Assembly (NCBI RefSeq): GCF_032062105.1
Contig: NW_026935291.1
Location: 496,001 to 560,000, forward strand
DNA from: Saccostrea cucullata
Taxonomy: Eukaryota
Reading direction: 5' to 3'
DNA length: 64,000 bases
Position numbers and translations under genes: made by a program
Notes under the pieces: model-generated
What the model was told of the DNA's origin: nothing
What the model saw: only the letters and a program-made list of their open reading frames with translations
The model's database searches: none
Shown: in pieces, positions 52,337 to 57,273 of the stretch
Layout of the letters: the number at the start of each line of letters is the position of its first letter
Position numbering within the stretch: the stretch's first letter is position 1

Positions 52337-55300
52337 TTACTTAAGACCAAATAACTTTCTTAATCGAAATCTCAGTGTCTTCTTTCCTCCTGTTGCCTAC
52401 AAAATAACAATTCCAACACTGTATCACTAAATAAATCTTAATTACAGGAAAAGTTATTATCTCCCTTCACTCAAAAATGATTTTCAAAAAGAAATTCAAG
52501 TCATTACAGGTATTTCATTATGCACCAATTTAGGATATTTTGCAGGTTAAAAATGTGCAGAAATGACTTTTTAACTAGAAATAATAATTGTAATTTATTG
52601 GATAAGAGTTATCTCTCTTATCAGAGGGTAAATCAGCCTTAAAATGTGTACCTTCTGTGTATGAACTGCTGTCCTGCTCTCACTGATACTAGTATGCGGC
52701 ATCATGCGGTCATTTCTGATATCCAGTTCACAATGCCCTGTCTCCTTGTCTTCTTTCAGTTCCCCCTATAATTAGAAATGTAGAGTTTCAAAAATTATGT
52801 AAAACCTCATTAAAAAAAATACCTTAGAATACCAATAAAATGACTTTACATTTATAAAGATGATCAGATTACTCTTAGTAATATATCAGTTTCAATTTGT
52901 GATAGAACTTGGTATATCTCCTGTACTTGAACTAGCTTTGCCTTTTTGATAATTATGAAATTTAGTTGCAATATTCCAGTTTATCAATCAAAGAACTTGC
53001 AATTTTTTTTTTCAGGTGAAAGTACATATAAACCTGTGCTTACAAATTCAAGAGAATTTCTTTTTCTGAGTGTGTGATTTGAAATGAATTCATTTTTTTA
53101 AAATAAAGTTTGCAAAATAATTCTTATTGTTAGATTTTGAACAGAAACATATTTTAAAAATCTTATTCATTAAAATCAAAAGTATATTGTAGTTGTTTGA
53201 GTGTGGTTTTTTATTTCAACCGAAATAGAATAATACCTTAAAGGGAGTCTTGAAAGTCTCAATATGGAACAAAAACAGTTTCCTTGGGACAAAATGTTGT
53301 TTTTCTCCTTCTTTATTTGACTGGTAACTCTGTAAAACAGGATTTATACTTCTAGACTTTGTTTGAAATTCAGAAGAAAAATATTTTAGTCTATTTTCAT
53401 CATTTTTTATATAAGTACAAATCTCTGAACTTCTCTTCTTACCAGCAGTTCTTTGTGAAGGTTAGACACCATTTGTTTTAATTCTCTCTTTTCAGTTACT
53501 TTTGCCTGTGTAAAAGAAATTAAATGAAAAACTTGACCTGCATATAAACAAATTTATAATCATGGTACTTTATTTATGATTATAGTTTAAAAACAAATTA
53601 TGTTTTCTTACCATGAGTTCTTTGTGAAGGTTAGATCTGTTTTAATTCTCTCTTTTCAATTACTTTTGCCTGTGTGTGTAAAAGAAATTAAATGAAAAAC
53701 TTGACCTGCATATAAACAAATTTATAATCATGGTACTTTATTTATGATTATAGATTAAAAACAAATTATGTTTTCTTACCATGAGTTCTTTGTGAAGGTT
53801 AGACACCATCTGTTTTAATTCTCTCTTTTCAATTACTTTTGCCTGTGTAAAAGAAATTAAATGAAAAACTTGACCTGCATATAAACAAATTTATAATCAT
53901 GGTACTTTATTTATGATTATAGTTTAAAAACAAATTATGTTTTCTTACCATGAGTTCTTTGTGAAGGTTAGACACCATCTGTTTTAATTCTCTCTTTTCA
54001 ATTACTTTTGCCTGTGTAAAAGAAATTAAATGAAAAACTTGACCTGCACATAAACAAATTTATAATCATGGTACTTTATTTATGATTATAGATTAAAAAC
54101 AAATTATGTTTTCTTACCAGCAGTTCTTTGTGAAGTTTAGATAACATCTGTTTCAATTCTGTCTTTTCTTTTACTTTTGCCTGTGAATAAAAAAAAATAA
54201 TTAAAAACTTGACCAGCATAAACAAATTTTTAATGTTATTTACCACAGATTAAACAAAAATGGTTTACCAATAGCTCTTTATGGAGATCTTTCATTTTCT
54301 GTTCTTGTGTCTCTCTTTCTTTGAATTTTGTCTTGAAAAAAAAAAACAACAACATTTAAATATAAAAAGGTATATGCACTTGAGATATAAATTTTCTCAA
54401 TAAATTCAAGTTTACATTAAAATGTGCTTATTTTCTGTTCTTGTGTGTATGTATCTCTGATTGTAATTTTCTCAGAATTTGTTTAAAATGTCCCTTTCCT
54501 GAATTGTTTTTCCCCTAAAAGGTTTTTTTTGACTTACCAGTAGTTCCTCTTGCATTTTTTTCACAATTTGTTGATGCTGCATTTTCTGTTGCATTTTTGT
54601 CTAAAAAAAAAAGACCCACACATTTTCTTTTGTAAATGCATATAGCTGTTGGAAAGTAAAGAGGTTGCAGTATACATGTGTATATTCAACAAAAAAATAC
54701 ACTTACCTGTAGCTCTTTGTGGACTTTTCCTAGTATTTCTTCATGGTTTTGCTTTTCTTTGATTTTTTCCTGGAAAAGGAGATTTATACAATTATCTATA
54801 AACACAAAATAAAAGGACCAAGCTCCAATATTTCATCCCCCCCAAATCTGCTATTCTCTAAAGTGAAATGATAAATACATTCCATTTTTTACCTGTTCTT
54901 GCTCTAGGGTTCTTTTAATCAGATCTTGTTTTTCCTTTTCCTCCTGTAATTCAACAATATTTACTCTTAAAAATGAATTTTTGCCATTAGTACTATTAAC
55001 AAATAACATAAAAATAAGAGAATGTTATTTAACTCATAGGAAATGCAAGTCATTTACAGCCTAATATTTTCAAAAGCTGTGTTCCTTAAAGTAACAATTT
55101 TTGAAATACCTTCACCTAAAAAATATTCAAGTAAATAAGTACCTCTTGTCTTCTATCTTCTTCTTCCATGGCTGCGGCCCAGTCGTAATCAAATTTAAGT
55201 ATCTTTAACTTTGTCTCCTAAAAAAAAGAAAGTCAAAGTGGAAATTTGATTTGAATGATCACTATTGCTCAAATGTCTCACCTAATATGCATGGTTATTT

Positions 55301-57273
55301 GCATCAGTGAATTTCATGTAATATAATTTTTTAACAACAACTCTTTAACACTCACCACATCCCGCACAGCTTCGTCGCCAAAATCCAAAATTTCACCTTT
55401 TTTGAGAATCTACAAACAAATGAATATTATATAATAATTGATATTAATTTCAAGGTTTTCTTTTAGATTGAATTTTGATGTCAAACACTCCATTCCTGGT
55501 GATGATTTGTTGTAGCAATGATTGAGACATTATTCCTTTGTTTTATATTTTGTGGTTATTTTTTTAACTAGATGATTGATTGGATATTTGCCACGTGATA
55601 TAAAATACCTCTTGTCTTCTGTCCTCCTCATCCATGGCCTGAGCCCAACTGTAGTCAAACTTCAAAATTTTCAACTTTGTTTCCTGCAAAATTGTCAAAA
55701 TTAAAATAAATCATGCATTCATTCATTTTCATCGTGATTTTATCTACTAGTATATACTACATTTAAGTAATTGTACATCTTTAAAATAAACTTTTTTCTG
55801 CCAGCATTAACTTTTATACCAATGCTTGTTTTATCAGATAGAATATAGAATATAATTTATTAGTGACTAAATTCTTAATTTAATATTTCTTGGAAAAACC
55901 TATAACTTCTGATTAGAAATAAATTCACTTTTCAGGTTAGGTATGAAAATACATGTAATTAATATATTCAATCTTTCCGCTCATCATTTCAGAGTATGTC
56001 GGTGTGGTGAGTGTCAAAACACTGGAAGGATTCAATGTGCGGATATTTTAAATCAACTCGATCATACAATGTAGAGTATAGTTTTACTCTTAGAACATTT
56101 AATCATTATACTTGTATGTATTAAATATTGTAAAACTATTCATTTAATTGTGGATTATCATGCTTAATTCCATAAAAGTACGAAAAATAAGCAGATAATA
56201 CATTTGTTATTTTTATAACTTAATATTTAAAAAAAAACAACGATATAGCCCCCCCCCTCCCTTTTTTTCGACAAGACACATTTTTTTCCTTATTCATCAA
56301 TTATATACAATTTTATACTGTTTTAGTGTAATTAAATTTTGAAAAAAAATTATATGTACTTGAATTTTTAAGGATTAATCAAAGATATAGAATATTCAGC
56401 ACATTCACCCGTCCGCTTAGTAACACTTACAACATCCCGCACAGCTTCTTCTCCAAAATCAAGAATTACGTCCATTTTGAAAATCTGAAAAATCAATGAA
56501 TAAATAAATTAATTAAAATAATATAATTTGTACAAAATGTAAATTTATACAAGTAAATTGATTTCAATCTGCTGATGAAAACGAATGCATGTTTAACATC
56601 CTACTTCTACTATTTCTTATCTTCGCTTTCCCTAGTGACGTGTTGTTGTAGCGATGATTATGACGTCACTCTTTTGTTACGTATGAACTAAATTGTGACG
56701 TTAAAGTAAAACGATCCTGTGTTCTAAGCATTTGCATAAATTATTTAGATTCTGGGAAAATAAGATAGAGCCGGGGAGAAAATATTTAGGTTAAATGTGA
56801 AACGGACACAAGATATATAATGCTTATAATATATGTAATCACGTATATTTATCATGGAATATCTGCTTATTTGACCCACCTATCTCCCAATCGGAAGATC
56901 ACTATGATCTAACTTAAAAGTCATTGTGAAATGACAGTATTTTGAGAAGTTTTATTATGACCAACAATTGAATAATTAGTATATAACCTTTGTAAGTAAA
57001 GGAACTTAATTTACTTAAAAGTTTCGATAAGAATTCCGTAGTAGAGAAGATTTTCTATGGCATCAAACTTCCATGCCCTCTTGCAATTCATGATACACAT
57101 GATATCGCCTAACACATGTATTTATGATAAATATAATTCGATAAGTGATAAAAACGGGCTAGAGATGATACAATTACATGACCCCTTTATTAAACTGAAA
57201 TACTTTGAAATAAATAAATCGAAATGTTTGTTGCATTTACCTTTACGCCTTTTGTTTGGTTGTGATGGTTCAT
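52337..57273 (-). CDS. Uncharacterised orphan coiled-coil protein encoded by phase-0 mini-exons (~318 aa without the frameshifted exon)
   Basis: Exons (57273-57241 tentative start), 56484-56431, 55683-55609, 55409-55356, 55217-55143, 54943-54893, 54769-54707, 54600-54538, 54331-54269, 54180-54118, 54011-53949, 53842-53780, [53669-53612, 58 nt], 53505-53443, 52765-52652 and 52396-52337. All are AG/GT bounded and multiples of 3 except the bracketed one. Ends TLRFRLRKLFGLK*; AATAAA on the minus strand near 52200. Confidence 0.78.
53435..54240. repeat. 169-bp tandem repeat (~5 copies); each unit is one 63-nt exon plus a ~106-nt intron
   Basis: TTCTTACCA..GTTCTTTGTGAAG recurs with exon ends at 53443, 53612, 53780, 53949 and 54118. 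Confidence 0.92.

Follow-up and report, generated by a model that had tools for sequence, protein, structure and literature searches.

A spliced gene built from short phase-0 exons

The stretch analysed here (the window) comprises 64,000 nucleotides (nt) of the Saccostrea cucullata genome (assembly GCF_032062105.1, contig NW_026935291.1, positions 496,001 to 560,000), and the gene under study lies on its minus strand between window positions 57273 and 52337. A first-pass annotation had proposed a hidden orphan gene at this place. We found that the gene is real, that it belongs to a family of oyster proteins, and that it encodes two copies of a 32-amino-acid (aa) module whose last third resembles the motif (SLIP1-binding motif, SBM) present in SLBP, DBP5/DDX19 and eIF3g. 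The oyster family and the SBM-like motif had been overlooked in the first-pass annotation.

Between these positions, 17 segments that are open in phase 0 and measure 33-114 nt lie on the minus strand; they encode the peptides quoted earlier and include seven intact 63-nt exons. A GT donor is present in 17/17 segments and an AG acceptor in 16/17. In a chance screen, open 63-nt phase-0 exons numbered six in the 4.9-kb gene versus one in the other 59 kb of the minus strand. RNA support comes from six runs under the same species label: three consist of raw RNA reads and three of contigs, and for two of the contig sets an RNA origin is only a guess. The features are as follows.

57241..57273, minus: first exon of the earlier model, 33 nt from an ATG; good donor, no acceptor, zero depth in 6/6 runs
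56431..56484, minus: exon A1, 54 nt, LDFG half of module 1; joint 55682/56430 in X2, X20 and X21
55609..55683, minus: exon B1, 75 nt, KLxILxFxY and SBM-like motif 1 (SWAQAMDEED); RNA joints on both sides
55356..55409, minus: exon A2, 54 nt, LDFG half of module 2; RNA joints on both sides
55143..55217, minus: exon B2, 75 nt, SBM-like motif 2 (DWAAAMEEED); RNA joints on both sides
54893..54943, minus: charged 51-nt exon, where the predicted helical stalk begins; joints on both sides in X20 and X6
54707..54769, minus: 63-nt helical-repeat exon 1; RNA joints
54538..54600, minus: 63-nt helical-repeat exon 2; joint 54600/54707, and X21 contig 2 connects it to the next exon
54269..54331, minus: 63-nt helical-repeat exon 3; joint 54179/54269 in X2 and X6
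54118..54180, minus: 63-nt helical-repeat exon 4, first unit of a 169-bp tandem array; RNA and array comparison
53949..54011, minus: intact 63-nt array copy, identical to the copy at 53780..53842
53780..53842, minus: intact 63-nt array copy; no RNA depth at 53776-53919
53612..53669, minus: array copy of 58 nt, broken by a 5-nt deletion with frameshift and stop; zero RNA depth at 53632-53775
53443..53505, minus: last 63-nt array copy; joint 53504/54117 in X2 and X3
53237..53329, minus: 93-nt exon with the family motif FVPRKLFLF; RNA pieces, 34 matches in its own genome
52873..52941, minus: 69-nt open segment; weak acceptor, skipped in 6/6 runs and in retrocopy L006
52652..52765, minus: polar linker exon, 114 nt; joints 52764/53236 and 52395/52651
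52337..52396, minus: last coding exon, basic tail and stop; joint 52395/52651, tail common to relatives
52150..52336, minus: 3' untranslated region (UTR), approximate extent; X20 contig 2 reaches 52257, retrocopy UTR ~80% alike

Every one of the 12 junctions in a 13-exon chain, running from 56484 to the stop codon, is backed either by a GT-AG joint or by contig pieces that abut; the chain as a whole is not covered by any one read or contig. Each of the 12 supported introns is in phase 0, the supported exons measure 51-114 nt, and intronless paralogous copies carry the same exon joins. Expression was low (34 and 14 reads placed from 11-13 million records, partly from repeats). Most exon pieces from RNA were 0-6 letters off the window sequence; the 3' contig of X20 was 7-9% off and may represent a diverged allele or a close paralog. 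The gene is real and spliced, as had been claimed, and it is weakly expressed. About 15 exons of 33-114 nt, all in phase 0, had been predicted; RNA supports the chain of 13 exons, and the first exon and the 69-nt exon have no such support. The latter is likely a relic or a rare exon.

The segment at 57241..57273 is more likely 5' UTR or a rare in-frame extension. In paralog L028, a stop comes after the ATG of the matching exon, and relatives have their start Met in the exon that follows. The start codon of the gene is likely at 56475, inside exon A1, judging from its match to the starts of relatives. An X6 contig is unspliced over 56650-56828, which makes this a candidate true 5' end, and TGACGT words, resembling the cAMP response element, occur at 57275-57310 and 56660-56675 as well as before the first exon of the paralog (L028 2140-2190). 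At the other end, the retrocopy UTR finishes with AATAAA and an A run. We also considered that the gene might be the 3' end of a larger gene and discarded this, because the module stands at the beginning of relatives and because the neighbour upstream is an F-box gene in divergent orientation.

Translated from Met 56475, the 13 exons encode 293 aa with 63 Lys and Arg and 60 Asp and Glu residues. The product has no hydrophobic segment (best 19-residue hydropathy 0.18, best 9-residue N-terminal value 0.7), and hydropathy gave no signal peptide or membrane segment, no signal-peptide predictor having been run. Comparison of exons B1 and B2 yielded proportions of synonymous and nonsynonymous differences of 1.10 (pS) and 0.09 (pN), respectively. 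The two N-terminal modules are under strong purifying selection.

Exon duplication and the predicted helical stalk

The 63-nt exons include a recent tandem array of five units of ~169 bp, each consisting of an exon and its intron. Together with the phase-0 introns of subfamily paralogs, this supports the earlier claim that the gene grows through duplication of phase-0 exons. The same annotation had the gene built entirely of symmetric exons; this holds for all supported introns but not for the 58-nt broken copy within the array, inclusion of which (53612..53669) would truncate the protein. Transcripts of X1, X2, X3 and X6 each contain one of the four near-identical 63-nt copies, and a joint between any two of these copies was not listed in the six runs. 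The single copy may reflect exon skipping, or individuals may differ in copy number.

Length tuning by exon skipping had been proposed as well. A Magallana gigas relative has nine annotated in-frame isoforms, which differ by clean blocks without mismatch (16, 17, 21, 50, 51, 56 and 72 aa, plus 101 as 50+51), all of them pipeline annotations; for the gene itself, however, the six runs gave no isoform ladder.

For the stalk, AlphaFold2 predicted one long helix (residues 62-269) in paralog P0016, starting at the motif Trp (17 sequences, predicted local distance difference test (pLDDT) 70, predicted template modelling score (pTM) 0.31). The two paralog models obtained (pTM 0.36 and 0.31) both show the helix from the motif Trp and no compact fold. 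The 63-nt exons likely form a helical spacer. A coiled coil in strict heptads, as originally suggested, fits less well. The best heptad register of the 63-nt exons is 60% hydrophobic, with four hydrophobic core positions and Lys at two of six in nearly every exon (7/7 and 6/7), and exons of the subfamily also measure 25, 29 or 32 codons. A second recurring helix motif, [VIL]HxE[LM], is irregularly spaced.

The tail had been described as a basic amphipathic, possibly membrane-attached end. It is basic (net +7), but its hydrophobic moment of 0.48 does not exceed that of shuffled sequences (p 0.63); among relatives, 4/13 tails do so at p<0.05. The comparison for this tail is the MinD-type C-terminal amphipathic membrane anchor, a basic helix with a high hydrophobic moment. 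The hydrophobic spacing of the tail also fits the MIM1 motif; its charge does not.

The likeness to schistosome micro-exon genes (MEGs) did not hold up. Both have many short exons, mostly multiples of three, that are hard for gene finders, but in the excerpted account MEG exons span 6-81 bp, mostly 15 bp, and encode secreted proteins (PMC10526429). The oyster gene has exons of 51-114 nt and lacks a signal peptide, its conserved motifs differ from those given for the MEGs in that excerpt, and other subfamilies have phase-2 introns and large exons. By exon size and secretion it is not a schistosome-type micro-exon gene.

A large family found so far in oysters

Contrary to the proposed orphan status, a profile search recovered dozens of oyster relatives. 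In the S. cucullata genome (G000), a 53-aa probe taken from an intronless copy found 63 matches, which lie on 37 contigs (E up to 0.1, 125 candidates). The 93-nt exon matched 34 times, on 30 contigs (E up to 1, 37 candidates), and four contigs were shared. The family thus has matches on about 60 contigs, some of which are allelic duplicates, and the weak matches are unverified; family motifs were present in 18/18 and 19/20 fetched loci.

Used singly as a homolog query, the 53-aa probe found no relative among 33 candidates, whereas a profile succeeded. It identified 17 proteins among 7995 candidates (14 from Saccostrea cucullata, three from S. echinata) and 35 among 1.84 billion representative proteins. 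A species name is attached to 28 of these 35, in each case Saccostrea, Crassostrea gigas or C. virginica; the others are six short single-exon frames (three without species, three not looked up) and one protein without the motif. A C. gigas query added 12 matches, all from M. gigas or C. angulata. Because members that are more than 50% identical stay hidden behind their representatives, the family range, so far oysters only (Saccostrea and Crassostrea/Magallana), is provisional.

Relatives include XP_034332392.1 (LOC105337229), XP_065941696-704.1, XP_022319640.2 and XP_062616274.1. Like the gene described here, these unnamed RefSeq proteins combine an N-terminal module with a variable middle, an FxPRKLFLF motif and a basic tail. 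They differ in bearing automatic low-complexity names, and none of them is the gene itself (profile matches are 46-73% identical to the probe); a protein from its contig was absent among the profile-search and C. gigas-query matches. Pipeline names such as MNS1-like, titin and trichohyalin reflect composition only.

The first-pass annotation had not recognised the protein, and in 30 protein scans of family members we obtained no Pfam match above cut-off, with a library that lacked PF26541.1, an entry precomputed for five M. gigas members (P0046-P0049, P0055). The whole-module profile retrieved four unrelated matches from the PDB (E 0.66-4.6), and in the ESM Atlas P0001 had no usable match and P0002 one at 0.77 with a template modelling (TM) score of at most 0.34. 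A description of the family was not found in literature main texts, including by 12 accession ids; supplementary oyster expression tables could list the genes.

Members contain one to four 32-aa modules, a variable middle, an acidic run with FxPR(K/R)LFLF and often a basic tail; several have a disordered acidic middle and no stalk. In the helical subfamily, to which our gene belongs, introns are in phase 0 in 13/13 (P0016), 13/13 (P0018) and 12/13 (P0017) cases, the odd one probably being a junction-picking error. Its helical exons measure 21-32 codons, often 21 or 28, also 25, 29 and 32; P0016 combines six helical exons of 84 nt with one of 63 nt. In the acidic subfamilies, introns are in phase 2 and some exons are large. 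In a further subfamily (P0007, P0010, P0011, P0024) a Cys-rich LFLCGxCC-type stretch, a possible lipidation site, replaces the central motif. Amphipathic segments of P0026, P0036 and P0011 resemble, as far as we can judge, helices that anchor protein kinase A (PKA).

Processed copies occur at three or more sites (L004/L005, L006/L007, L013 and pieces in L022), which suggests germ-line transcription of some members. The sites L004/L005 and L006/L007 have different flanks and the same first base, the start of exon A. Broken relatives are many (L002, L003, L004-L007, L012, L013, L022). One of them, a degraded paralog 20 kb away in opposite orientation (L012 5600-8760, plus strand, contig C17428 of the genome at ~573600-576760), has 63-nt exons that are broken, last exons that are intact and a remnant that matches the 69-nt segment.

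The conserved module ends in an SBM-like motif

In its last third the module has the sequence (S/N)W(A/V/S)(D/E)xVExxE. According to the part of the structural study drawn on here, SLIP1 contacts SLBP at Asn-1, Trp0, Gly+1, Asp+2, Val+4, Glu+5 and Glu+8, with DBP5 being equivalent (PMC3763545). In 57 distinct module units from 40 family proteins, the contact positions are strongly conserved (W0 in 56, V+4 in 56, E+5 in 55, E/D+8 in 56, S/N-1 in 53, D/E+2 in 51, A/S/C+1 in 42 and V in 13), and +3 and +6 are highly variable. A tree was made of 48 distinct in-register units, drawn from 33 proteins (56 matches less six that were out of register, truncated or spurious and two duplicates); on it, parsimony required 1, 0, 2 and 1 changes at 0, +4, +5 and +8 versus 15, 12 and 6 at +3, +6 and +7. 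The strict SBM pattern was present at 46/92 Trp residues in 33 family proteins versus 1.5e-4 per Trp in shuffles.

The two modules of the gene itself have Met at +4, as does oyster SLBP, and D/D and E/D at +5/+8. We examined and rejected the idea that the module derived from SLBP or eIF3g exons, as the sequences upstream of the Trp are not alike; the comparison covered these two oyster genes and not DDX19. Judged by eye, other readings of the motif fit poorly, namely PP1 RVxF, clathrin box, LC3-interacting region (LIR), kinesin W-acidic and cyclin RxL, the last of which is absent in one subfamily.

Candidate adaptor and known partners

The oyster's own SLBP and eIF3g keep the SBM, with Met at +4 in SLBP. 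A SLIP1-like MIF4G gene (L049 on contig C4773) has an exon that matches zebrafish MIF4GD (4JHJ_A) at E 6.8e-6, and 7/11 of its pocket residues are identical, no gap being assumed across one exon junction. A MIF4G family search at E 0.001 gave eIF4G-, DAP5- and UPF2-like exons (named by eye) and reached the SLIP1-like gene only at E 3.4; a metagenome scan for SLIP1 relatives found none among 212 pattern matches. Elsewhere in the genome, at L051-L054, there are three broken, partial copies of the SLIP1-like gene.

The portions of the cited studies available here outline the system. In DDX19B, W6A/V10A abolishes CTIF binding, and DDX19B tethers CTIF near the nucleus (PMC8373075). PAIP1 is a third SBM binder, the system is restricted to metazoans and its groove is used by a virus (bioRxiv 10.64898/2026.07.31.742013); a second excerpt gives the same metazoan range and does not mention molluscs (bioRxiv 10.64898/2026.10.14.759114). 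The main texts searched on SLIP1, SLBP and MIF4GD made no mention of oyster or bivalve.

With SLBP, DBP5/DDX19 and eIF3g the oyster family shares a Trp-centred acidic motif with the same contact positions, located near the N-terminus and predicted to form a helix in an otherwise unfolded region. Unlike them, it has one to four motif copies per chain, each following an equally conserved 23-aa extension, it lacks an RNA-binding, helicase or RRM domain, and it comprises dozens of genes in one lineage. The known SBM proteins bind SLIP1/MIF4GD, CTIF and PAIP1; for the oyster family, such binding is proposed. A precedent for competition or co-option is SARS-CoV-2 NSP3, a non-canonical occupant of the PAIP1 SBM groove according to the excerpt consulted (bioRxiv 10.64898/2026.07.31.742013). 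NSP3 is viral, while the oyster proteins are host-encoded with an SBM-like sequence.

Proposed docking to MIF4G adaptors and its alternatives

We give a probability of about 0.5 to the reading that the modules occupy the SBM groove in MIF4G adaptors of the SLIP1/CTIF/PAIP1 type and so tether or sequester these adaptors. The Trp of the second module would begin the long helix, so that the motif would cap the predicted stalk, which would gain ~3 nm with each 63-nt exon. The protein might be a competitor of DDX19, SLBP and eIF3g for adaptor binding or, alternatively, might hold the adaptor at a site set by its C-terminal motifs (FxPRKLFLF and the basic tail); competition or tethering is suggested because the protein lacks an RNA-binding or enzyme domain. 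The two motifs, whose Trp residues are 43 apart, could fill both sites of the SLIP1 dimer, which lie 65 Å apart in the part of the study drawn on here (PMC3763545). The outcome might be that mRNA export is tuned, or alternatively histone and cap-binding-complex translation; germ cells are a possible setting, suggested by the retrocopies that the family leaves.

Several observations weigh against docking in the SBM groove. At +2 (Q, A) and +4 (M) the gene differs from what is usual in the family; the DBP5 peptide also has Q at +2. Positions 0, +4, +5 and +8 form one face of any helix. In 1.19 million six-frame positions (window and fetched loci) the strict pattern matched only family copies, SLBP and eIF3g, but most of this background is translation of non-coding sequence, and the loci of SLBP and eIF3g had been included deliberately. 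A 20-aa piece of B1 had as its sole PDB match the DBP5 SBM peptide (4JHJ_C, E 0.94, 7/10 positions), a weak, post hoc match from one of four trimmed 20-aa queries, the other three of which matched nothing; a control exon drew an unrelated PDB match at E 0.23, and the whole-module profile recovered no SBM protein. In the oyster adaptor 4/11 pocket residues differ, and two of the differing positions, R77 and N81, belong to a human triple mutant that lost binding, as stated in the excerpt used (PMC3763545). A complex prediction with residues 8-50 of P0001 and three exon-encoded SLIP1-like pieces scored 0.02; it used no alignments, unlike its calibration, and is not evidence either way.

The upstream arm of the module speaks for another explanation. 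Its positions (L-23, D-22, F-21, G-20, V-16, K-10, L-9, I-7, L-6, F-4, Y-2) are as invariant as the SBM-like ones, and neither SLBP nor eIF3g of the oyster has an equivalent of the arm (LDFG, V-16, KLxILxFxY), so the partner of the module may be a different one. The SBM likeness would then be convergence of an acidic helix in a structural or scaffolding family, for example of sperm, cilia or the cytoskeleton, to which the long helical stalk and the irregularly spaced [VIL]HxE[LM] motif would be suited. We regard this as possible but clearly less probable than docking in the SBM groove. Residue identity, beyond spacing, fits all seven contacts reported in the excerpt (PMC3763545), and stalk-less members with a disordered acidic middle leave the module as the constant part.

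The reading of the first-pass annotation, a membrane-attached coiled coil tuned in heptad steps by exon skipping and diversified like the MEGs, appears improbable to us. The phase-0 arrays of the gene and of P0016-P0018, the nine annotated M. gigas isoforms and the basic tails, with a significant moment in 4/13 relatives, are consistent with it. However, Lys occupies 2/6 core positions, some exon and isoform lengths are not heptad multiples, hydropathy shows no signal peptide or membrane segment, the tail moment is not significant in this gene, and no isoform ladder was seen for it in six runs; the invariant N-terminal module would be left unexplained.

Similarly improbable is a drifting or decaying paralog whose array arose by unequal crossing-over in one haplotype, with extra copies lacking function: one frameshifted and two identical array copies, a single copy in RNA of other individuals, low expression, many broken relatives and the missing protein from the gene's contig fit this, but strong purifying selection between the two modules, spliced RNA at all 12 junctions and an intact central motif and tail argue against it, and it may apply to the three extra array copies alone rather than to the gene.

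Neighbouring features

The first exon of a divergent gene begins 1.5 kb from the family gene (58735-58785, plus strand, continuing into L011 3514-6500). Its downstream exons appear to encode an F-box and leucine-rich repeats (LRRs), which we take to be FBXL2/FBXL20-like. Inside this gene (L011 8300-10000, contig C17428 at ~566300-568000) lie tandem ~93-bp units, each with an AG acceptor and LRR-like text, a possible exon amplification or assembly artefact.

Other features of the window are as follows.

~21200-30400: THAP and DDE_Tnp_4 frames on plus and a YqaJ nuclease on minus, flanked by long direct repeats (shared text 21231-21572 and 30033-30335), presumably a KolobokP-type transposon
14490-16401, plus: Somatomedin B-domain protein with a likely membrane segment
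413-715, plus: C-type lectin exon
38980-39357, minus: WD40-like exon without a Pfam match, which we take to resemble dynein intermediate chain

Implications

Taken further, and somewhat more tentatively than docking itself, we propose that true oysters possess a massively expanded SBM-only family, multivalent host-encoded mimics of the DDX19/SLBP/eIF3g motif on adjustable exon-built stalks, which would position or titrate SLIP1/CTIF/PAIP1. In the portions of the literature drawn on here, the SBM occurs in single copy in three core factors, and the only outside occupant of the groove is a coronavirus protein. A tandem-motif gene family without an RNA-binding domain would then represent a dedicated cellular decoy or tether for this hub, with the motif extended by a conserved 23-residue arm that might be a second binding surface. 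It would offer a natural series of valencies (one to four) and stalk lengths and assign a function to oyster genes now labelled titin-, trichohyalin- or golgin-like. If true, the family would add a lineage-specific control layer over mRNA export and translation in oysters.

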